Positions 6,313 to 18,910 of a DNA stretch of 32,000 nt are shown here, in pieces. The stretch is from assembly GCF_040732315.1 (NCBI RefSeq), contig NZ_CP160388.1:1794494-1826493 (forward strand), written 5' to 3'. A program made the translations under genes and the position numbers. The stretch is from Alicycliphilus soli. GTDB lineage: Bacteria > Pseudomonadota > Gammaproteobacteria > Burkholderiales > Burkholderiaceae_C. The notes under the pieces are model-generated. The model did no database searches and was not told where the DNA came from. It was given only the letters and a program-made list of their open reading frames with translations. Position 1 is the first letter of the stretch, and every line of letters begins with the position of its first letter.

Positions 6313-6316
<4 letters not shown>
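4895..6316 (-). CDS. TolC-family outer-membrane efflux protein
   Basis: ORF 4895..6856 trimmed to the ATG at 6316, which overlaps the RND stop as ATGA. Signal peptide ends ...LLLAPMAPAAHA/TDLL. Two coiled-coil-rich repeats typical of OEP proteins. Confidence 0.85.
6269..6304 (-). repeat. REP-type hairpin repeat, family 1, copy A (inside the first codons of the OMP gene)
   Basis: 6279-6304 is the exact reverse complement of 360-385. Stem GCGCTTG/CAAGCGC. Translated as TIAARACPTSAKAIFGLKL. Confidence 0.7.
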
Positions 6317-9546
<3,230 letters not shown>

Positions 9547-9547
9547 G

Positions 9548-10591
9548 TCAGCGCACCCTTGCCGCAGCCTGGGGCGACTGCGCCACCTGGTCGCCCGCGG
9601 CCAGGCCGCTCAAAACCTCGACCATCTCGCCCTGGGGCTGGCCCAGGCGCACCTGGCGCAGCTGGGGCCGGCCGTTGGCGCCGCGCACGTACACGCCCGT
9701 CATCTCGGCGCGGCGCACCACCGCGCTGGCGGGCACCAAGAGGCGCTGACCTGCGTCCTGCGCGCCGCCCTGCCACCACAGGCGCGCGAATGCGCCGGGC
9801 AGGGCGCCCGCCAGGTTCTCTGGCATATTGTTCGGCAGTGGCACGCGCACGGTGACGGTGTGGCTCAGCGGGTCGGCCGTGGGCAGCACCTGGATCTGCG
9901 CGGCGGCAATGTCCAGGCGCTGGCCGGCAAGCTCGACCTGCACGCCCGCGGCCTGGCCGAGCTGCTGCGCCTGCTGCTGGGTGAGGGCGGCGGCCACGCG
10001 CAGCTGCGCGGGGTCATACACCGACAGCAGCGGCCGGCCCGGCATGGCCATGTCGCCCAGCGCCACGGGCACGCTGGCCACCACGCCGGCATAGGGCGCC
10101 TTGAGCACAAAGAGGCCCGACTGCGTGGCCGCCACACCGGCCTGCGCCTGCAGCGCCTGCACCTGGGCCTGGGCCGCGCGCCATTGGGCCTCGGCGGCAT
10201 CCAGCGCCGCCTGGCTGATGTAGCGCTTGGCAAACAGCTGCCTCTGGCGCTCGTACTCCTTGCCCGCCACCTGCAGATGGGCCTGGGCGGCAGTCACCTG
10301 CGCCTGGCTGGCGCTCGCGCCCTGGTGCGCCATGCGTGCGTCTATGCGCAGCAGCTCCTGGCCTGCGCGCACGCGGTCACCGGCCTTGACGGGCAGCGCA
10401 ACGATGGCGCCCGCCACCTGGGCCGACAGTTGGGTGTCGCGCACGGCCTCCACCTTGGCGTCGCTGCTCTGCCAGCCGGCCTGGGCCGACTGCACGGCAA
10501 CATAGTCGAGAACAGCGGGCTCGGCGGCCCGCACGGGCGACAGACCCGCATGAGCGGCAAGCAAGAGAGGCAGCCAAAGGCGATGAGGCAT
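9548..10591 (-). CDS. RND efflux periplasmic adaptor (HlyD/MFP family)
   Basis: Signal peptide MPHRLWLPLLLAAHAGLSPVRA, a coiled-coil hairpin (AQA repeats) and beta-barrel regions. Sits 1 nt upstream of the RND gene. Confidence 0.85.
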   Translation of the reverse strand: MPHRLWLPLLLAAHAGLSPVRAAEPAVLDYVAVQSAQAGWQSSDAKVEAVRDTQLSAQVAGAIVALPVKAGDRVRAGQELLRIDARMAHQGASASQAQVTAAQAHLQVAGKEYERQRQLFAKRYISQAALDAAEAQWRAAQAQVQALQAQAGVAATQSGLFVLKAPYAGVVASVPVALGDMAMPGRPLLSVYDPAQLRVAAALTQQQAQQLGQAAGVQVELAGQRLDIAAAQIQVLPTADPLSHTVTVRVPLPNNMPENLAGALPGAFARLWWQGGAQDAGQRLLVPASAVVRRAEMTGVYVRGANGRPQLRQVRLGQPQGEMVEVLSGLAAGDQVAQSPQAAARVR

Positions 10592-10650: not shown

Positions 10651-10694
10651 TGTACCATGTGCAGGCATGAGCGCACACCGAATGGAGCGAAGTG

Positions 10695-11033
10695 ATGAAG
10701 GAATTGCCCCCTGAAGCCCTGGATCAGGTCGCCGCCTATTTCCAGGTGCTGGCCGAGCCCACGCGTCTGCGCATCCTCAACCTGCTGCGCCAGGGCGAGC
10801 ACAACGTGGGCGAACTGGCCCAGGCCTGTGGTTACACGGCGGCCAACATCTCAAGGCATTTGTCGTTGATGACCAAGCAGGGCATCGTCTCGCGCGAGGG
10901 ACGCGGCACCAGCGTGTACTACCGCCTGACCGATGAGTCGGTCGACGCGCTGTGCGACCTGGTCTGCGGCAACATCGCGCGCCGACTCGAGCAGGCCGCG
11001 CAGACCAACAGCGCATTTCGTGAGCGCCTGTGA
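10695..11033 (+). CDS. ArsR/SmtB-family transcriptional regulator
   Basis: Winged-HTH signature LAEPTRLRILNLL...VGELAQACGYTAANISRHLSLM. GGAG lies 7 nt before ATG 10695. Confidence 0.85.
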   Translation: MKELPPEALDQVAAYFQVLAEPTRLRILNLLRQGEHNVGELAQACGYTAANISRHLSLMTKQGIVSREGRGTSVYYRLTDESVDALCDLVCGNIARRLEQAAQTNSAFRERL

Positions 11034-11222: not shown

Positions 11223-11250
11223 AGTTAACATAATATACAGAGGCGGTTTG
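11223..11250 (-). other. dif-like XerC/XerD site L
   Basis: Minus strand reads CAAACCGCCTC-TGTATA-TTATGTTAACT. The central hexamer is identical and the XerD arm matches 10/11 to E. coli dif (GGTGCGCATAA-TGTATA-TTATGTTAAAT). The XerC arm is non-canonical. Confidence 0.7.
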
Positions 11251-11500
11251 CTTGATCGAGCAGGGCGGCGCGAATCTCGGGGTTCTTGACCCGTTCGGCT
11301 GCTTGGTCAAGCACCACGCTAGCAGGCGCAATGCCTAGCATCTGCGCTACACTAATTGAAGCACGTTCATCCAATGTTGAGCCTCGTTTTCTGTAGAGGC
11401 TGATTGTTGCTTGGGTGATTCCAAGTGCTTTTGCGACGGCATAGTCGCTAGCAAATCCGCGTTCGTTCTTGACGCGGTCAATCCATTCAAAAGCCTTCAT
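11225..11500 (-). CDS. phage repressor-like HTH protein (XRE/CI-type)
   Basis: 91 aa with an HTH (YAVAKALGITQATISLYRKRG). Divergent from the phage early operon. The last five codons and the stop lie inside dif-like site L. Confidence 0.7.
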   Translation of the reverse strand: MKAFEWIDRVKNERGFASDYAVAKALGITQATISLYRKRGSTLDERASISVAQMLGIAPASVVLDQAAERVKNPEIRAALLDQANRLCILC

Positions 11501-11632
11501 GTTTGACTCTTCTGTTGCGTTGGCGATACGTTGCGCATGGTAGTTAAAGATTTAAAGACCTTCAAGTATTAGAGGGTATCAAATGCTTTGAGGTGTTTTG
11601 AGTACATTTCGGCTCATCAATAGGGAGTCGGC
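11501..11632. promoter_or_regulatory. divergent phage control region
   Basis: AT-rich. Tandem TTAAAGA (11544-11550, 11552-11558). TTTGAG repeated at 10-bp spacing (11587-11592, 11597-11602). Leftward candidate promoter TTGAAG (complement of 11560-11565), 17 nt, TACCAT (complement of 11537-11542). Confidence 0.35.
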
Positions 11633-12019
11633 ATGTCTCAAACACAAGTCATCTATCAGGGCGAGCGGTATACGGTGCGGCGCAAGGTCGGCAACGTGCT
11701 CGAACTTGCCTATGACACGGGCTCATTCTTCCGTCTGGTGCATGCCACCAGCGTAACCCCTTGTCCTGCCCTTGCGGTCGAAACGGCTGCATGTGGTTTG
11801 CCGACTCCAGCAGCCGCGCAGGGGCGGGACAACCGGGCCGCGTGGCTCTCTATTGCGGACTTTCTTGCCCTTGAAAATCTTCGTGGTGTCCTGCGTGACC
11901 GTGCGGCGCAAGCATGCGCCGGCATGGGCACGAGCTCCGCGAGGGCGCAGGCCGGCGCATGCTTGGGGGCCGCTCAAGTCCTCCCCCATGGTAATCACGG
12001 GGAGAACACCGAATGTTGA
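11633..12019 (+). CDS. hypothetical phage protein
   Basis: GGGAG RBS before the ATG. First gene of the rightward operon. No recognisable motif. Confidence 0.5.
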   Translation: MSQTQVIYQGERYTVRRKVGNVLELAYDTGSFFRLVHATSVTPCPALAVETAACGLPTPAAAQGRDNRAAWLSIADFLALENLRGVLRDRAAQACAGMGTSSARAQAGACLGAAQVLPHGNHGENTEC

Positions 12020-12543
12020 AAGTCGCTGCGCTGTTTGTTCGTTCTGACAGTCACTACAAAAAAATGGGTTGTGATTGTTACGACTTCGAACGTAATGCGT
12101 TGACCTGGCCGGGGGGTGTGCCTTCTGTAGCGCATCCGCCTTGCAGGGCATGGGGGCAGTTATCGCAGTTCGCGAAGCCTCGGGATGGTGAAAAAGAGCT
12201 TGCTCCGTGGGCGGTTGAGCAGGTTCGGCGGTTTGGCGGCGTCGTTGAACATCCCTATGCTTCCCGGTTGTGGGCAGTTATGGGCTGTGGTGGGTTCGGC
12301 CTGCGCGATCGCTGGGGCGGTGTGCTGATACCGGTTATGCAATCGTGGTGGGGCCACAGAGCGCCGAAAAAAACGGCGTTGTACATCGTGGGGCCAGTGC
12401 CTGCGCTACCTGACCCGGTGGGCGTCGCAACGGGTCGGGTTGAATTGATGGGTAAACGCGAGCGCGAAATGACCCCGTTTGAGTTTGCGCGTTTCCTCGT
12501 GGATATAGCACGTGAATCAAAAGGTTTTGGGGGTGCGGTATGA
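12013..12543 (+). CDS. hypothetical phage protein with C5-methyltransferase-like motif order (no motif I, no TRD)
   Basis: GGGGAG RBS 8 nt upstream. ATG overlaps the upstream stop (ATGTTGA), and its own stop overlaps the Rep start (ATGA). Motifs: HPPCRAWG, GGVVEHP, APKKTALYIVG, MTPFEFARF. Confidence 0.55.
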   Translation: MLKVAALFVRSDSHYKKMGCDCYDFERNALTWPGGVPSVAHPPCRAWGQLSQFAKPRDGEKELAPWAVEQVRRFGGVVEHPYASRLWAVMGCGGFGLRDRWGGVLIPVMQSWWGHRAPKKTALYIVGPVPALPDPVGVATGRVELMGKREREMTPFEFARFLVDIARESKGFGGAV

Positions 12544-13793
12544 CCCGTCCAGCAGGAACCCGGCTGAACAAGCATTCCAAAACCTGCGCGCTGGTGCTTG
12601 ATGGGTCGGAAGTCAAAGCGCGGTTGATGATCGAGCGACGCGAAACCAAAATGCCGGTGCATGTGGATTGGGTGCGGTTCACGGCGCTGGTGCGTAATGC
12701 GCCGACACCTGAGGTCGATGTACTCTTTCCTGAACCCGTGGAGTTGCTGAGTCTTGCTGAACAGGACGAAAGTGAACGGCGAAAAAAGCGCCTGCGCAAA
12801 ATGCTCGCGGAACTGCCTGACCCGCAATACGCGCCAGGCGGGCAAGCTCTGGAACTGGCGGAAAAAGTGGCGTCGATCCTTGGGGATGAATTCGTTGTCG
12901 TTTCTGAGCTTCGCAAGGGTCACGACTTCTATGCAAAGCGCATCAGTATCGAGCGTCACGGCTCTGAAGTGGGATGGGTCGGCTTCGGCGCAAGCGGCGA
13001 TAGCCCACGGCAAAAAGCGCAATCGCAAACCCTGCATGTCAATCTTTACGGCACGGCGTGTACCTTTGCCAAGGCGGGATGGCGCGATGCCATTGCGGAC
13101 CTGGTTGATGAGCTGGACGCCAAAATAACCCGCGTTGATCTGGCGTTGGACTTCTTCGATGGCCTCGCCGGTGGCATGCGTCGAATCAAAGCCGACTATG
13201 AGCATGGCTTGATGGATTGCGGCGGTAAGCGCCCCAAGTGCAACATGGTTGGCGACTGGTCAAACGGCCCAGTCGAGGGCAAGGGGCGTAGCTTCTATAT
13301 CGGCTCCAAGGAAGCCGGAAAGCAAACGAACGTCTACGAAAAAGGGCATCAGCTTTTTGGCGAAAAAGATGCATCCGGCTGGATCAGGGCTGAATTGCGG
13401 TTTGGCAACAAACTTCGCGTTCTGCCGTCTGATCTCCTGCGTTACCCGGCATCAGGCTTTGCCGGTGCCAGCGACTGGCACGCGGCGCTGCTCAATGAGG
13501 CGGGCGCTACGGTTGACCCGTTCAAAGTGCCTTGTGAAAAGCGCTTGGCGGCGGAAACCATCGAAGCGGAAGTAACCCGTAATGTGCGATGGGTGCGTGA
13601 CGTTGCGGGCGCGTCCCTGTCCCTGGCCTTTCAGTACTTGGGCGAAAACGCCTTTCTCGAAATTGTGAATCCAAAAGCGGTTCCGGGTCGTCTGCGTCGA
13701 TTCAGCCGTGATGAGATTCGTTGTGCCTATGAAAAAGCGCATGGGCGTGTTTATCGGCCAGCGGGGACGGGTCAACCTTGCGTAACGGCTTAA
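12540..13793 (+). CDS. rolling-circle replication initiation protein (Rep_trans / RstA-like)
   Basis: VDLALDFFDG and RSFYIGSKEAGKQTNVYEKGHQ resemble the conserved blocks of filamentous-phage Rep_trans initiators. 417 aa. An internal start cannot be excluded. Confidence 0.75.
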   Translation: MTRPAGTRLNKHSKTCALVLDGSEVKARLMIERRETKMPVHVDWVRFTALVRNAPTPEVDVLFPEPVELLSLAEQDESERRKKRLRKMLAELPDPQYAPGGQALELAEKVASILGDEFVVVSELRKGHDFYAKRISIERHGSEVGWVGFGASGDSPRQKAQSQTLHVNLYGTACTFAKAGWRDAIADLVDELDAKITRVDLALDFFDGLAGGMRRIKADYEHGLMDCGGKRPKCNMVGDWSNGPVEGKGRSFYIGSKEAGKQTNVYEKGHQLFGEKDASGWIRAELRFGNKLRVLPSDLLRYPASGFAGASDWHAALLNEAGATVDPFKVPCEKRLAAETIEAEVTRNVRWVRDVAGASLSLAFQYLGENAFLEIVNPKAVPGRLRRFSRDEIRCAYEKAHGRVYRPAGTGQPCVTA

Positions 13794-13819
13794 TCAACTG
13801 ACCAAAAGAAGGAAGCATC

Positions 13820-14143
13820 ATGCAATTTAAGTCCGAAGTCATCATTCACGGCATCAAGGAAAGCAAAGGCAGTATTGAGGGCCGGGAGTTTTCGAGTACG
13901 ACATTCCATTGTGAAGTCGATCTCGCAGAAAACAGCGCGGGTCGCTCCATCGGTCGCGCAACCCGTCCCTTCAAATTGGGCGATGCTAAGGAATTCGACA
14001 AGTGGTCACACCTGGGCGATTCTCTGCCGATCAAGGCAATTGCCACGTTTGAAATGGCGGCGGCTGCGCAAGATGGCACGAAAATGGTGTTGGTCGATAT
14101 TCGTCCGGTCGAAATGGCAAAGCCTGCGCAAAAGGCGGCGTAA
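13820..14143 (+). CDS. putative ssDNA-binding protein (g5p analogue)
   Basis: 107 aa directly after Rep with a strong RBS (GAAGGAAG). Assigned by position and size only. Confidence 0.45.
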   Translation: MQFKSEVIIHGIKESKGSIEGREFSSTTFHCEVDLAENSAGRSIGRATRPFKLGDAKEFDKWSHLGDSLPIKAIATFEMAAAAQDGTKMVLVDIRPVEMAKPAQKAA

Positions 14144-14145
14144 AA

Positions 14146-14358
14146 ATGCGCTACGTCATCCAAAGCGCATTTACGGGCGCATTCCTCGCGCCGAATCCCG
14201 ATGATGGGCAACCCGAATGGGTCATGCTCCTGCGGGATGCTTGCGCGGTGGATGACTTGGAAACCTGCGCGCAATTGATCGAAGATCATTGCGACTCATA
14301 CCATAAGGCGGTCGTCGTTGATTTGCGATGTTTATACAAAAACCCGCAAGTCGAATAA
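14146..14358 (+). CDS. hypothetical small acidic phage protein
   Basis: 70 aa. Starts 2 nt after the upstream stop. No motif recognised. Confidence 0.4.
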   Translation: MRYVIQSAFTGAFLAPNPDDGQPEWVMLLRDACAVDDLETCAQLIEDHCDSYHKAVVVDLRCLYKNPQVE

Positions 14359-14440
14359 TGGCGTGTGCAGCATATAGGCGTTGATGACGCCTATCTGATG
14401 CGTATGCATCATTTTCTCAACTACTTTTGGAGGTTCGAAT

Positions 14441-14641
14441 ATGAACACGAAAAACGCTCTGCGCTTTGGCGCTATCCCTGCCGGTCTGCTCGGTGCTTTC
14501 GGCGCTGCCAATGCTGCGGTTCCGCAGGAAATTACTGACGCCATCAGCACCATGCAGGCTGACGGCGTGACGGTGGCAACTGCCTTTGTGGTTGCGGCTA
14601 TCGCCGTTGCAGCAATCAAGTTCCTGCGCTCGGCAAAGTGA
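14441..14641 (+). CDS. major coat protein (g8p-like)
   Basis: Signal peptide MNTKNALRFGAIPAGLLGAFGAANA. The mature part has an acidic N-terminus (PQEITDAISTMQAD), a hydrophobic core (VATAFVVAAIAVAAI) and a basic C-terminus (KFLRSAK). GGAGG RBS. Confidence 0.8.
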   Translation: MNTKNALRFGAIPAGLLGAFGAANAAVPQEITDAISTMQADGVTVATAFVVAAIAVAAIKFLRSAK

Positions 14642-14958
14642 GCTATCAGGTCGGCGCAACCTGCTATGGCAGCGCAGTAGATGCGCTGTCTGCTGTCGCC
14701 TCGTCGCAAGTCGGGGCGGTCGTCGTGCATGGTGGCGCGGCCTACGTGGTGGGAGTTCAGGCTGTCGGGCCTGACTCCATCACGTATAGCCTGCAACCCG
14801 TCGCCGGGGGGCAAGCTATCCAAAGCGTCGTTGCGCTGACTCCGCAACCGTGCGGCCTGCTTGAGTGGCAAGACGGTTTGGCGCTTGGGTGGGCTGTTGC
14901 GGCGGCCTGGATCGCTACGGCGGCAATACTGCATCTTCGTAAGGCTGCGCACCAATGA
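14638..14958 (+). CDS. putative minor coat / membrane protein
   Basis: GTG start overlapping the coat stop (GTGA). C-terminal TM segment LALGWAVAAAWIATAAILHL followed by RK. Confidence 0.45.
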   Translation: MSYQVGATCYGSAVDALSAVASSQVGAVVVHGGAAYVVGVQAVGPDSITYSLQPVAGGQAIQSVVALTPQPCGLLEWQDGLALGWAVAAAWIATAAILHLRKAAHQ

Positions 14959-15001
14959 CACCGGATTTCGCAATTATGTTTTTGGCCGTCGCAGGGTTGG
15001 C

Positions 15002-16399
15002 ATGGATCGTTTCGCAAAACTGGTAATCGCTGCTGGCCTGGGCCTGGCGTCGTTTTCGGCGTCTGCGGGCTATGCGTGGCCGTCTGATCCGGTGGGGTTC
15101 ACGCGGTCGGGTGCATGGGGCAAGGGGTACGGCTACGCGGCGGCGGCTAACGATCAATTATTCGGTAGCGGGAAAATCATCTATCAGAGTAACGGGTTAA
15201 AGGTGCCTGTGCCTGGTAGAGTTACAACAATGCCGGTTGCGTATCGGCTTGCGGCGAATGCGCCGCGATATGCAGCGCGGGCGCTTTATCTGCATCCTGG
15301 CGCGCGGGCGGCTATGGGGATAGCGGCATGGCTCGGTGCGGCGGGGTTGGTATGGGATGCCGCGCAAAACGCATGGGTGAGGCCGGATGGGAGTTCAGGC
15401 ACGGTGTCGGACGGATATGAATACAGCCCTGGCGGTGAGCAGTATTACCCGACGCCTGAGCAAGCGTGTGAGGCGCATATGGCGACATACACGGGGCCTA
15501 TGTTTGCGACGTTTAAATCGATTAAACCGTTTGGGGCGTCATATCAATGTATATTTAGGAAATATATAGTTAATGAGGATGGGTCGCAATCGGTAATTAA
15601 TGAGAATACGACGCATATTCTGAATAAACGGCAGAGTCAGTGTCCGCAGGGTTGGTATCACACGTCAGCAGGTTGTACACAGAACCCGCAGCCTAATAGA
15701 GTGACGCAAGAGGAATTTGAGGAGCTTTTGTCACCTAAGCCAATGCCGGAAACGGTGCCGCAGGAGTTGCCGTATCCAACGCCTTTGCCGGTTGATCCGA
15801 CGCCGGGGCCATGGGTTAATCCGGAGCCTGGCGATAATCCCAAGCATCGGCCTACGTTTATTCCGAATGGCGATCCGGTGCCAAATCCTAATTACAACCC
15901 TAATGCAGAACCAAGCACAGAAAATCAGCCATATGTCGAGCCTGGCACGCATGTAAAACCGTCGCCAAGTCCAGAAGACCCGTGGCGAATAGAAATCAAG
16001 CCGGTGAATCGTCCGAAGCCCAGTCCGGAGTCGGGGCCGGAGCAGCAGCCAGACCCTAACCCGGATGAAAACGGCAATACCAATACGGGCGACAAGCCGA
16101 AGGAAGATCCGGGGTTGTGTGAGTTGTACCCGGATATTCTCGCGTGCGTGAAGCTGGATACGCCAGACGAGGAAGAATTGCCAGAGTCGGAAAAGCCGAT
16201 TGCCGTCACACCTGATGCGGGGTGGGGGCCTGATGGCGGGTCATGTCCTGCGCCTCGCATGCTCACGGTTCAGGGGCGTCAAATCCCGATACCGTTTGAT
16301 TTGTTCTGCGTCTATATGTCGGGGCTTCGGCCAATCATCATTGCCATGGCCTGGCTGAGTGCTGCGTTTATTCTGGTCGGCGCAAGGGAGGGCGATTGA
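15002..16399 (+). CDS. adsorption protein (g3p-like)
   Basis: ORF 14861..16399 trimmed to ATG 15002. Signal peptide MDRFAKLVIAAGLGLASFSASA, a long Pro-rich linker (PQPNRV...PDPNPDENG), and a C-terminal anchor LRPIIIAMAWLSAAFILVG. Confidence 0.65.
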   Translation: MDRFAKLVIAAGLGLASFSASAGYAWPSDPVGFTRSGAWGKGYGYAAAANDQLFGSGKIIYQSNGLKVPVPGRVTTMPVAYRLAANAPRYAARALYLHPGARAAMGIAAWLGAAGLVWDAAQNAWVRPDGSSGTVSDGYEYSPGGEQYYPTPEQACEAHMATYTGPMFATFKSIKPFGASYQCIFRKYIVNEDGSQSVINENTTHILNKRQSQCPQGWYHTSAGCTQNPQPNRVTQEEFEELLSPKPMPETVPQELPYPTPLPVDPTPGPWVNPEPGDNPKHRPTFIPNGDPVPNPNYNPNAEPSTENQPYVEPGTHVKPSPSPEDPWRIEIKPVNRPKPSPESGPEQQPDPNPDENGNTNTGDKPKEDPGLCELYPDILACVKLDTPDEEELPESEKPIAVTPDAGWGPDGGSCPAPRMLTVQGRQIPIPFDLFCVYMSGLRPIIIAMAWLSAAFILVGAREGD

Positions 16400-16677
16400 T
16401 GGGCTTTGGAACCTTCTTGGCGTCCCTGGCGGGGCCAATTGTTAAGCGGGCCATGATCGCGCTAGGGTTCGGTGTCGTGTCATACGCGGCGATGACGGCG
16501 GCGCTGAATGCGGCGCTGTCTGCGGCTAAAAACGCATGGGCGGGGCTGGCGGGCTTTCCTGAGGCGCTACAGCTAGTGCAACTGGCCGGGATCAATACGG
16601 CTGCATCCATCATTGCCGGGGCGCTGGTGGCGCGTGTGGCGATGCAAAGCCTTAAAAAATTCGAGGTTGTCAAGTGA
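16399..16677 (+). CDS. g6p-like minor coat protein (DUF2523-like)
   Basis: ATG overlaps the g3p-like stop (TGATG) and is preceded by GGGAGGG. Small hydrophobic Ala/Gly-rich protein placed between g3p and Zot. Confidence 0.55.
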   Translation: MGFGTFLASLAGPIVKRAMIALGFGVVSYAAMTAALNAALSAAKNAWAGLAGFPEALQLVQLAGINTAASIIAGALVARVAMQSLKKFEVVK

Positions 16678-17864
16678 TAACGCTGCTGACGGGCATGCCG
16701 GGCGCGGGCAAAACGGCGGCCATGATCGACTTGTTGCAAGACCTGGCGAAAGATCGTCCGGTGTTTGTGCATTTCGACCCAAAAGAGCGTTTGCGGCCAG
16801 AGCAAAAGCTTTTGCACGAAACTCTGCTTATTCCGCATCAGCCGGTCAATGCGGCGACCTGGCACGAGGAAGTATCTGACGGCGGGATATTGGTCATCGA
16901 CGAGGCACAGGGCTGCTGGCGACCACGCGGGCCAGCGGCCAAAGTGCCGGAGGCAATCGCGGCGCTCGAAACCCATCGGCACGCGGGGATTGATATTTTC
17001 ATTACCACGCAAAGCCCCAGGCTGATTGATGCCAACGTGCGCGGCCTGGTCGGGCGGCATGTGCATATTCGGGACACTGGGTGGTTGGGCCGGTGGTGGT
17101 ACGAGTGGCCGGAAGTGAATGAAGGTCTGGCCTGGAAAACATGCCCAGTCAAAAAGCGGTACAAGCTGCCGCGCAAAGTGTTCGACCTGTACGCAAGCGC
17201 GAACGAGCACCACAAGCCGGTTCGTGCTGCCCCGAAAACCCTTGCGCTGGTGGCGGTGCTGCTGGTGTGTTTGACAGTCCTGGTCGGCCTGATCGTGCGG
17301 ACCTTCAAAAATCACACGGCAGAGAAACCAGCGGCGGCGGTGCCTGCGCCCCAAGCGCCCCAGGTGCCCCAAGCATTGCCAGTAAACCCGGTGACGGTCG
17401 AAGATGATGATGGTATGAACGGGTCGTTGGATGAGCGTATTGCGTTTGTTCCGCGTCTGTCTGATCGACCCTGGACGGCTCCGGCGTATGACGGTTATCG
17501 GGTCGTCGTCCATATGCCGGTCGTTGCCGGTGCCATCTGCAAAGGGGATGAATGCATCTGCCTGACGGCGGACGGGGCGAAAGTGCCTGATATGAGCGCG
17601 GCGGCGTGCAAGACCTGGCTGCAATCGCCACGGCCATTTAACCCGTACGTGCTGCCGCCTCCGCCAGCGGCTAGCGTCCCTGTCGGTCGTGGCGGGCGCG
17701 GCGGTGCTGTTTCGGGTGATACTGAACCCGGCGAACGTCAAACCGTTGCTGTTCCTGGCGGGAGCGCAAACGTAGTTCCCATGGCTGACGTTTCCGTGAA
17801 TCTGCGAAGCGCAATAGCAGGTACAGGGCAATACCGGCCAGCAGGATCAGGCCAGCCACTGTAA
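16674..17864 (+). CDS. Zot / pI-like phage assembly ATPase
   Basis: Walker A GMPGAGKT, Walker B ILVIDEAQ, a central TM segment LALVAVLLVCLTVLVGLIV, and a Cys-containing periplasmic C-domain. GTG start overlaps the upstream stop. Confidence 0.9.
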   Translation: MITLLTGMPGAGKTAAMIDLLQDLAKDRPVFVHFDPKERLRPEQKLLHETLLIPHQPVNAATWHEEVSDGGILVIDEAQGCWRPRGPAAKVPEAIAALETHRHAGIDIFITTQSPRLIDANVRGLVGRHVHIRDTGWLGRWWYEWPEVNEGLAWKTCPVKKRYKLPRKVFDLYASANEHHKPVRAAPKTLALVAVLLVCLTVLVGLIVRTFKNHTAEKPAAAVPAPQAPQVPQALPVNPVTVEDDDGMNGSLDERIAFVPRLSDRPWTAPAYDGYRVVVHMPVVAGAICKGDECICLTADGAKVPDMSAAACKTWLQSPRPFNPYVLPPPPAASVPVGRGGRGGAVSGDTEPGERQTVAVPGGSANVVPMADVSVNLRSAIAGTGQYRPAGSGQPL

Positions 17865-17909
17865 AAGGGTCTGCGAGAAAATCGACGGTCATCCCTCTAG
17901 GTTACTTCA

Positions 17910-18179
17910 TTAGTCCCAAAAGCCGCGCAAAGCGGCTTTTACTTTTTGACCCAGTGCGCGCGCGGCGCGTGCGGCGTCCTTTGCCCATTGCGGCGTCACC
18001 TTGGGCGCGGGATGCGCGATGCGGCCAGCAGCCGCAAAGGCCTTGCCGCGCGCGGCGCGGATCTGGCGCTGGATGCGCGTCGTAGGCCGTGGCAAAGCCC
18101 ACACCAGGGCGCGGCCAAACGGAAGCGGCAATTGCAGCGCGAGGGCGTCGGGGTGCTTGCGGTAGTTTGCAGCGATCAT
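17910..18179 (-). CDS. hypothetical basic phage protein
   Basis: ORF 17910..18251 trimmed to ATG 18179, with AGGAG 9 nt upstream. 89 aa, Arg/Lys/Ala-rich, no motif recognised. Confidence 0.4.
   Translation of the reverse strand: MIAANYRKHPDALALQLPLPFGRALVWALPRPTTRIQRQIRAARGKAFAAAGRIAHPAPKVTPQWAKDAARAARALGQKVKAALRGFWD
17918..17947 (+). terminator. rho-independent terminator after the structural operon (possibly bidirectional)
   Basis: AAAAGCCGC-GCAAA-GCGGCTTTT followed by ACTTTTT. Lies inside the last codons of the minus-strand ORF 17910..18179. Confidence 0.6.
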
Positions 18180-18423
18180 GGCGCTAATCTCCTGAGTCGA
18201 ACGAGGCCAGCACGCGGCGCGGGGTGGCCTTGTTCGCGAGGAGCGATGCACAGCAGGGACAGCTATTTGTCAAGGGGCCGCGCGGAAATCGCAGCCCGGA
18301 GCGCAGCGGAGGGACCGATTGAGCACGGCGGCGAAGCCCGAAGCCCTTTACAAATAGATGGCGCTGCGGTAAATGCCCAGCTGGCCTGTGCCATAGGGCG
18401 TGCTAGGTCTGGCGCGGTGCTGG

Positions 18424-18735
18424 TTACGCGGCGCGGAAAAATGGCCGGTTCGCGGCGCGGTCGTTGCTGTCCAAAAGTCTCTCAAGCTCTCGCACCTGGC
18501 GTACGAGGCGGGCATTTTGGGATTGCAGCGCCTGGGCTAATCCGTGCTGCACCTGGGCGTAATTGTGGGCGTCGCAATCAGCGGCTGATCGTCCCCAACG
18601 TGTTTCCCAAAAAAGCGCCAGTAGCACCGGGCGCGGTGCGTCGTCGGCCTGTAGATACCGGCGCATCGTGCGCTCTGTGATACCCAGTAACTTTGCAACC
18701 TGGGCGGGCGATGCGCCCAGGTCATCAAACATCAT
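18424..18735 (-). CDS. HTH DNA-binding protein (putative phage regulator)
   Basis: MMFDDLGASPAQVAKLLGITERTMRRYL is a clear HTH, followed by a C-terminal coiled-coil-like LVRQVRELERLL. Start taken at the ATGATG at 18735. Confidence 0.6.
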   Translation of the reverse strand: MMFDDLGASPAQVAKLLGITERTMRRYLQADDAPRPVLLALFWETRWGRSAADCDAHNYAQVQHGLAQALQSQNARLVRQVRELERLLDSNDRAANRPFFRAA

Positions 18736-18882
18736 GGTCAAGCTCGGCAGACTGCGGGGGCTTCGGAACATAAAAGCCCCAATGCATAACTAGCACGGCT
18801 TGTCAATAGGGAAAAAACTGACCACGGTTTGACTTGGCGCAATCGGCGGGAGCGTCGAAGCCTCTCCAGCGGCTTTTTCAGG

Positions 18883-18910
18883 ATTAAACATAATATACAT
18901 CGTATCCAAC
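18883..18910 (-). other. dif-like XerC/XerD site R
   Basis: Minus strand reads GTTGGATACGA-TGTATA-TTATGTTTAAT. Central hexamer identical, XerD arm 10/11 to E. coli dif. Same orientation as site L. Shares the 13-mer AACATAATATACA with site L. Confidence 0.7.

Follow-up and report, generated by a model that had tools for sequence, protein, structure and literature searches.

A drastically minimised candidate homologue of DNA cytosine-5 methyltransferases encoded by an inovirus-type prophage of Alicycliphilus soli

Small phage proteins of the MAV1-like type have long been annotated as putative DNA cytosine-5 (C5) methylases. They include MarMP of phage MAV1, gp15 of Lactococcus phage P087 and proteins of Streptococcus Javan phages, and come from phages of Firmicutes and Mycoplasma. 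Here we analyze a protein of 176 amino acids (aa) that appears to be a still smaller relative of theirs. It is encoded at positions 12013-12543 of a 32,000-nucleotide stretch of Alicycliphilus soli DNA (NCBI RefSeq assembly GCF_040732315.1, contig NZ_CP160388.1, positions 1,794,494 to 1,826,493 of the forward strand), referred to below as the window. Both the MAV1-like proteins and the family of the 176-aa protein are devoid of a target-recognition domain (TRD), and both are products of early or replication-region phage genes; the gene for MarMP adjoins that for RepP. The two groups also have in common an LF-loop-Y pattern, (S/N/H)PPC, E(N/H)PxxSxxW, KPT/KxT and R(S/E)x(I/T)P. However, MAV1-like proteins keep the motif I glycines (FDSGNGS), the alphaA/beta2 unit and an insert of about 50 residues past PPC, all three of which have been lost in the family studied here, and they have ENP where this family has EHP. 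Since the MAV1-like proteins too are without a TRD, sequence comparison suggests that TRD-less C5-like proteins are a broad phenomenon among phages. In the MAV1-like putative methylases (L122:11474-12112 and loci L123-L128), the gap from KPT to SYNERSNIP is only about 25-45 residues long, and the P087 copy stops short of motif IX. Lactococcal 936 phages have methyltransferases in their replication modules, assigned to CY(6m)AG (PMC4190342), which might have belonged with P087 gp15; this lead was dropped, since the tblastn matches did not include Phi15, Phi93 or Phi145, and the paper has no bearing on the family studied here.

Another described relative is Gp8 of the Rhodobacter phage Ebor. It is a true member of the family (44% identity, E 1e-29), and its gene lies directly 5′ of the replication initiator gene of this single-stranded DNA (ssDNA) phage. 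Gp8 was named 'putative DNA methylase' on the basis of an HHpred match with an E-value of 2.3e-8 (PMC11980548). Nanopore sequencing of Ebor DNA gave 1.58% 5-methylcytosine (m5C) calls in any context and 11.5% N6-methyladenine (6mA) calls, and the authors could not attribute methylation to Gp8 (PMC11980548). The Ebor paper was all that we found on searching the literature for MarMP, for Q67472 and for small C5 methyltransferases without a TRD that have been characterized.

With canonical enzymes of the Pfam family PF00145, such as M.HhaI, M.HaeIII and DNMT3A/3B, the 176-aa protein shares the predicted fold over 158-168 of its 176 residues (Z 7.4-9.3), the Pro-Cys pair and the motif VI Glu, the motif VII/VIII pattern and the motif IX helix. 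C44 and E79, its counterparts of the catalytic Cys and the motif VI Glu, are 35 residues apart, compared with 38 in M.HhaI. Yet it is only about half the size of the canonical enzymes and lacks the TRD, motif X, motif II/beta2 and the motif I glycines. In addition, ENV has become EHP, QxRxR has become AxKxT and GG-PC has become AH-PPC. The protein departs from most of the sequence features that define PF00145 and yet is built on the same core, of which it is a further-minimised variant.

The original prediction, made from the letters alone, had recognized in this ORF (open reading frame) a series of motifs in the order typical of C5 methyltransferases. Structure modeling and profile comparisons largely support the view that the protein is a drastically minimised homologue of these enzymes. 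The model that AlphaFold2 produced from an alignment of 62 diverse homologues has a predicted local distance difference test score (pLDDT) of 95.6 and a predicted template-modeling score (pTM) of 0.91, and consists of six strands with flanking helices. Among the matches listed by Foldseek against PDB, almost all were C5 methyltransferases, including M.HaeIII (1dct, E 1.6e-4), M.HhaI, DNMT1 and DNMT3. When 48,161 chains were scanned exhaustively with VIA-align, DNMT3A was the best match (Z 9.3, 158 of 176 residues aligned, root-mean-square deviation 3.6), followed by DNMT3B (9.2), the E. coli prophage methyltransferase 3g7u (7.7), M.HhaI (7.4), C5-carboxymethyltransferase, DIM2, ZMET2, M.MpeI and Dnmt2. 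VIA-align Z-scores of 7-8 are common on their own, so the discriminating features are the uniformity of the top matches and a coverage that includes the C-terminal helix. The C5-type matches (Z 9.3 to 7.1) align over 154-168 residues and span model residues 1-171, including the motif IX helix, whereas other class I methyltransferases (Dam, DpnM, Erm and others) align over about 100-119 residues with Z no higher than 6.9. The best matches in BFVD (TM about 0.6) were small viral proteins of 210-250 aa, several of them annotated as cytosine methyltransferases, and the nearest named neighbors in ESM Atlas were viral clusters of 213-228 aa with PF00145. In this model, the protein has the C5-methyltransferase fold, reduced to the Rossmann-type catalytic domain. 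Two outcomes had been named beforehand as speaking against such a relation, namely the lack of significant profile or structural similarity and a confident match to an unrelated characterized family; neither turned up in Foldseek/PDB, VIA-align, BFVD or ESM Atlas. The Foldseek and VIA-align searches speak against a peptidase with C44 and H80 as its Cys-His pair, which the original prediction had offered as an alternative: invariant Cys and His residues are all that speaks for it, the fold is that of a Rossmann-type methyltransferase, and with no peptidase among the Foldseek, VIA-align, Pfam or NCBIfam matches we regard it as scarcely credible and reject it.

We then looked at what sequence profiles say about this relation. 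Searches of Pfam (E up to 1), NCBIfam, PADLOC and PDB sequences, run with the single sequence and with a 62-sequence profile, gave no meaningful match, and the PDB profile matches to designed helical repeats and a ribosomal protein were dismissed as chance. The sole family match was phrog_12600, of unknown function (E 1.9e-52, residues 2-144). A link to PF00145 was provided by an intermediate set of proteins, consisting of P087 gp15, which had been found as a BFVD fold match, and its relatives from MAV1 (MarMP), Javan prophages, and S. thermophilus and Enterococcus phages. These proteins of 212-270 aa are annotated 'putative C5 methylase (MAV1virus-like)'. The family profile matched this MAV1-like set with a probability of 89.6 and an E-value of 1.9e-6 over 157 columns covering motifs I, III, IV, VI, VIII and IX. 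The MAV1-like set in turn matched 23 PF00145 proteins taken from genomes with a probability of 95.6 and an E-value of 1.2e-8. Neither of two control comparisons was significant: reversed profiles gave P 0.27-0.30, and Dam gave P 0.06-0.18.

The profile alignments bear out the original motif assignments, with PC as motif IV, the Glu as that of ENV in motif VI, and counterparts of motifs VIII and IX. The strings on which those assignments had been based are all present: KVAALF (residues 3-8), VRSDSHY (9-15), HPPCRAWG (41-48), GGVVEHP (75-81), APKKTALYIVG (117-127) and MTPFEFARF (153-161). The features of the ORF, in window coordinates, are as follows.

12013..12543, forward strand: the 176-aa ORF, starting with ATG, a predicted minimal C5-methyltransferase-like protein of the phrog_12600 family.
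12022..12057, forward strand: residues 4-15, VAALFVRSDSHY, beta1 and the loop equivalent to motif I; L7, F8, S13 and Y15 are conserved, glycines are missing.
12067..12099, forward strand: residues 19-29, GCDCYDFERNA, a short strand aligned to motif III (GDI); D21, D24, R27 and A29 are conserved.
12133..12156, forward strand: residues 41-48, HPPCRAWG, motif IV; C44 (TGC, 12142-12144) falls on the catalytic Cys of PPCQxFS.
12235..12273, forward strand: residues 75-87, GGVVEHPYASRLW, a beta strand with E79-H80-P81 as the equivalent of motif VI (ENV); E79 (GAA, 12247-12249) is invariant.
12340..12393, forward strand: residues 110-127, QSWWGHRAPKKTALYIVG, the equivalent of motif VII/VIII (compare LNAxxYGvPQxRxRvfiVG); Q110, G114, H115, K119 and T121 are conserved.
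12394..12462, forward strand: residues 128-150, a variable linker at the TRD position, from a survey of lengths in 135 representatives.
12463..12510, forward strand: residues 151-166, REMTPFEFARFLVDIA, the C-terminal helix equivalent to motif IX; R151, T154 and P155 are conserved.

Judged by their conservation across 135 cluster representatives, the motifs are not chance resemblances. C44 is found in 134 of 135 representatives and E79 in 134 of 134. Residues conserved in at least 95% are L7, Y15, R27, A29, H41, P42, P43, C44, W47, G75, G76, E79, H80, P81, S84, L86, Q110 and G114; H115, K119, T121, R151, T154 and P155 reach at least 92%, and S13, D24 and Y124 at least 85%. E79 stands at the end of the strand formed by residues 76-81 and aligns with ENP/ENV through the MAV1-like family, its neighboring NV being replaced by an invariant HP. 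In place of QxRxR, motif VIII has the ungapped A117-x-K119-x-T121, in which both Lys and Thr are at least 93% conserved. Motif IX retains the pattern R151-E-x-T154-P155...A...L. The region between motifs VIII and IX (G127-R151) is a poorly conserved linker of 23 residues, and in the 135 representatives it has 21-47 residues except in three (5, 6 and 61). It is too short for a TRD, which is absent from this position; that there is room for neither a TRD nor motif X, as first proposed, could be confirmed. The protein is basic (pI about 9.3, equal to the family median of 9.3).

The cofactor loop calls for a revision of the original prediction, which had stated that the loop for S-adenosylmethionine (SAM) is missing. 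The glycines are indeed gone, but the loop itself has not been deleted: F8-V-R-x-D-S13-x-Y15 is equal in length to FxGxGG, with Ser13 at the position of the second glycine, and motif III aligns to G19-x-D21-x-x-D24. In canonical enzymes, the motif I Phe and the motif III Asp contact the SAM adenine. Because the loop length, F8 and D21 are all kept, loss of SAM binding does not follow. The retention of F8 and D21, together with the strong conservation of the N-terminal polar residues, suggests instead that the SAM pocket may have been rebuilt.

Taken together, the model and the motifs indicate that the protein is very probably a catalytically competent C5-methyltransferase homologue. C44 would attack C6 of cytosine in DNA, and a methyl group would then move from SAM to C5; in C5 methyltransferases, the motif VI Glu protonates cytosine N3. 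SAM would be held in a remodeled pocket comprising F8, the R10-x-D12-S13-x-Y15 loop, D21/D24 and R27. An enzyme of this kind, having no TRD, would be expected to show little or very short sequence specificity, and the ssDNA of inoviruses and microviruses might be accepted as a substrate. The resulting m5C could shield phage DNA from host restriction after transfer into a new cell. For this more specific proposal, a SAM-dependent DNA m5C methyltransferase used against restriction, our belief and our doubt are evenly balanced, based on sequence and model.

Several observations weigh against a working C5 methyltransferase. The protein does not reach the PF00145 gathering threshold. A direct hhalign comparison of the family profile with the 23 PF00145 proteins yielded P of 0.01-0.03, no better than the 0.021 for PF00145 against Dam, and is therefore not used as independent proof; its alignment placed AHPPCRxWG on GGPPCQxFS and QxWFGHxAxKxTwLYivG on LNAxxyGvPQxRxRvfiVG, with motif VI shifted. 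FxGxG is found nowhere in the 176-aa protein, and only 4% of family sequences have Gly at position 13. MAV1-like proteins and canonical enzymes have an alphaA/beta2 (motif II) unit that has been deleted here together with the motif II acidic residue. Motif X (GN..), which closes the SAM pocket, is absent, as the protein ends about 10 residues past the motif IX helix. In M.HhaI, cytosine O2 is bound by the second Arg of QxRxR, for which this protein has a Thr. Three invariant histidines, H41, H80 and H115, are peculiar to the family, canonical enzymes having G, N and V/I at these places, so sequence conservation leaves room for the histidines to support a different chemistry or a metal site. 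Finally, the low m5C level of Ebor DNA argues weakly against dense non-specific m5C.

To see in which genomic settings the gene occurs, we surveyed its homologues. There were 1,467 matches in a protein collection clustered at 90%, with a Pfam domain in none of the best 120, and 1,374 representatives of clusters formed at 50% identity. The family is also present on at least 588 IMG/VR contigs. Of 401 cellular genomes sampled from the phylum, 6 contain it, a sporadic occurrence that is expected for a prophage gene. Named carriers are the inovirus fSU1, tailed phages of Pseudomonas, Caulobacter and Ralstonia, and microviruses including Ebor. In 63 viral loci, the 3′ neighbor is an ssDNA-phage initiator in 15 (Rep_trans in 7, REP_ORF2-G2P in 6 and RepSA in 2), and other 3′ neighbors encode NinG, NinB, an N6_N4 methyltransferase, integrases, Tad2, MazG and HNH proteins. 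On the 5′ side we observed Lar, PAPS reductase, QueC, helix-turn-helix (HTH) regulators and ssDNA-binding proteins. The family gene of one tailed phage lies directly 3′ of an annotated Dam gene. Moreover, six proteins of the searched collections are fusions that begin with a Dam-type part (N6-adenine methyltransferase, PF02086) and have the domain at their C-terminus; five of them were checked (P0269, P0270, P0271, P0230 and P0238), and each has the DPPY motif. The family gene is a mobile accessory gene of early regions that travels with DNA-modification and counter-defense genes. In a further protein (P0166, 742 aa), the domain is at the N-terminus and is followed by a weak ParB_N match.

We next asked how other explanations compare with a SAM-dependent C5 methyltransferase. 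In the first, the protein is still an enzyme with a nucleophile for pyrimidine C6 but no longer uses SAM; it would catalyze deamination, C5 hydroxymethylation or formation of another adduct, or removal of a C5 group, with the histidines serving as acid/base or metal site. C5 methyltransferases deprived of SAM are known to catalyze deamination, aldehyde addition and decarboxylation of 5-carboxylcytosine (5caC). The loss of the G-loop glycines, motif II and motif X would fit such an enzyme, and yet S13, Y15, D21, D24 and R27 have remained strongly conserved. The invariant, family-specific histidines at the active-site face, the Thr at the position equivalent to R165 and the low m5C of Ebor DNA point in the same direction. 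On the other hand, the equivalents of the SAM-adenine contacts, F8 and D21, are retained in a loop as long as FxGxGG, the repeated fusion to Dam is what one would expect of a second methyltransferase, and no gene for synthesis of an alternative cofactor is consistently adjacent in the 63 viral loci. We therefore consider this explanation unlikely, although it is the strongest of the alternatives.

The second explanation is an amino-methyltransferase acting on N6 of adenine or N4 of cytosine, with HPPC as a variant of (D/N/S)PP(Y/F/W). Beta4 does end in an xPPx motif, the fold matches include Dam, DpnM and T4 Dam (Z 6.0-6.9), and 6mA was called in Ebor DNA (11.5%). However, the Dam-type matches extend over about 100 residues where those to C5 enzymes reach about 160, and leave out the C-terminal motif IX helix, and the profile comparison with Dam gave P 0.18. 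In HPPC, the base-stacking aromatic residue is replaced by Cys, FxGxG is missing, and both the Glu of motif VI and the patterns of motifs VIII and IX resemble those of C5 enzymes. The Dam fusions, moreover, already hold a separate intact DPPY domain. An amino-methyltransferase thus appears improbable.

Just as improbable, in our estimate, is a non-catalytic accessory or DNA-binding protein comparable to DNMT3L, whose role would be to aid Rep at the origin or to influence a methyltransferase of the host or the phage. DNMT3L and fungal RID/Masc1 show that the C5-methyltransferase fold can be combined with reduced or absent recognition parts and a non-canonical function. DNMT3L, however, has lost the catalytic Cys and motifs that are kept in the family described here, and RID is large and eukaryotic. 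The basic charge and the missing canonical SAM motifs would suit an accessory role, as would the coupling to Rep in the window and the position directly 5′ of Rep genes in the 15 viral loci, in Ebor and in fSU1. In contrast, the near-absolute conservation of Cys and Glu in a family of about 1,400 clusters would be unexpected for a scaffold, and most tailed-phage copies are not beside a Rep gene. The same observations qualify the partnership with the replication initiator that had been proposed for the 176-aa protein: the coupling holds in the window, but a family-wide tie does not, as tailed phages place the gene elsewhere, in early or nin-type regions. Adjacency to Rep is accordingly a trait of small ssDNA phage genomes and not of the family at large.

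If the protein is indeed a minimal C5-methyltransferase homologue, then at 170-200 residues the family would be by far the smallest proteins with the cytosine-5 methyltransferase catalytic apparatus, and would reveal what the fold can do without. Even ssDNA phages of 6-7 kb, in which each gene must pay its way, carry members of it. Methylation without sequence recognition, or on ssDNA, would explain how tiny phages evade restriction and could provide a tool enzyme; should SAM not be used, the family would represent new chemistry on an old scaffold. In either case, the annotations as 'putative DNA methylase', which now rest on profile matches alone, would be corrected or justified. It is possible, though doubtful, that we are dealing with a new class of enzyme on a C5-methyltransferase core without recognition domain and with a rebuilt cofactor pocket, either a sequence-independent methyltransferase of single-stranded or replicating DNA or a SAM-independent Cys/Glu/His enzyme (another cytosine modification or deamination), serving as a compact counter-defense gene in ssDNA and tailed phages. 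The label on Ebor Gp8 and the annotation of the MAV1-like proteins partly anticipated the present assignment; what is new here are the MAV1-like bridge, the exact deletion map, the Dam fusions, the neighborhood survey and the negative controls.

Finally, we examined the locus in which the 176-aa ORF resides. It belongs to an inovirus-type prophage at about 11.2-18 kb of the window, where positions 11223-18910 comprise a complete inovirus module with an HTH repressor, Rep_trans, phrog_4994, coat, g3-/g6-like and Zot proteins. The GC content of the prophage is 0.52-0.62, lower than the value of about 0.70 for the flanking host DNA, and no integrase was seen among the prophage ORFs examined. The features around the ORF are listed below.

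11225-11500, reverse strand: a leftward HTH repressor-like gene.
11633..12019, forward strand: ORF128 (128 aa), upstream of the 176-aa ORF, whose start it overlaps by 7 nucleotides (nt); no family matches.
11999..12004, forward strand: the ribosome-binding site GGGGAG, 8 nt 5′ of the ATG, read from the sequence.
12540..13793, forward strand: the Rep_trans rolling-circle replication initiator, 417 aa (PF02486, E 7e-23).

ORF128, the 176-aa ORF, Rep_trans and a phrog_4994 protein form a rightward operon. The phrog_4994 product is probably an ssDNA-binding protein. Further prophage genes encode the major coat protein (66 aa), proteins resembling g3 and g6, and an assembly ATPase of the Zot type. 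The proposed ribosome-binding site and the translational coupling on both sides are all confirmed: the ATG of the 176-aa ORF (12013-12015) overlaps the TGA of ORF128 (12017-12019) as ATGTTGA, and its own TGA (12541-12543) overlaps the ATG of Rep_trans (12540-12542) as ATGA. A site scan revealed no terminator-like site between the 176-aa ORF and Rep. We infer the designation 'early protein' solely from the position in the Rep operon.

As for ORF128, a relative of the 176-aa protein (P0089) has an N-terminal extension, joined directly to its methyltransferase-like domain, that is homologous to the first 45 residues of ORF128. The C-terminal half of ORF128 (…WLSIADFLALENLR…LPHGNHGENTEC) matches an ORF located 5′ of the homologue in an IMG/VR locus (L044). 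A split enzyme in which ORF128 supplies the missing parts is not supported; upstream genes vary among loci. From these sequence relationships, ORF128 may be a lineage-specific partner or regulator. Beyond the prophage, the host flank on its left contains, by visual inspection, ORFs of 1077 and 347 aa on the reverse strand (6313-10591) that resemble a resistance-nodulation-division (RND) efflux pump and its membrane-fusion partner, and a small ArsR-like HTH ORF on the forward strand (10692-11033).

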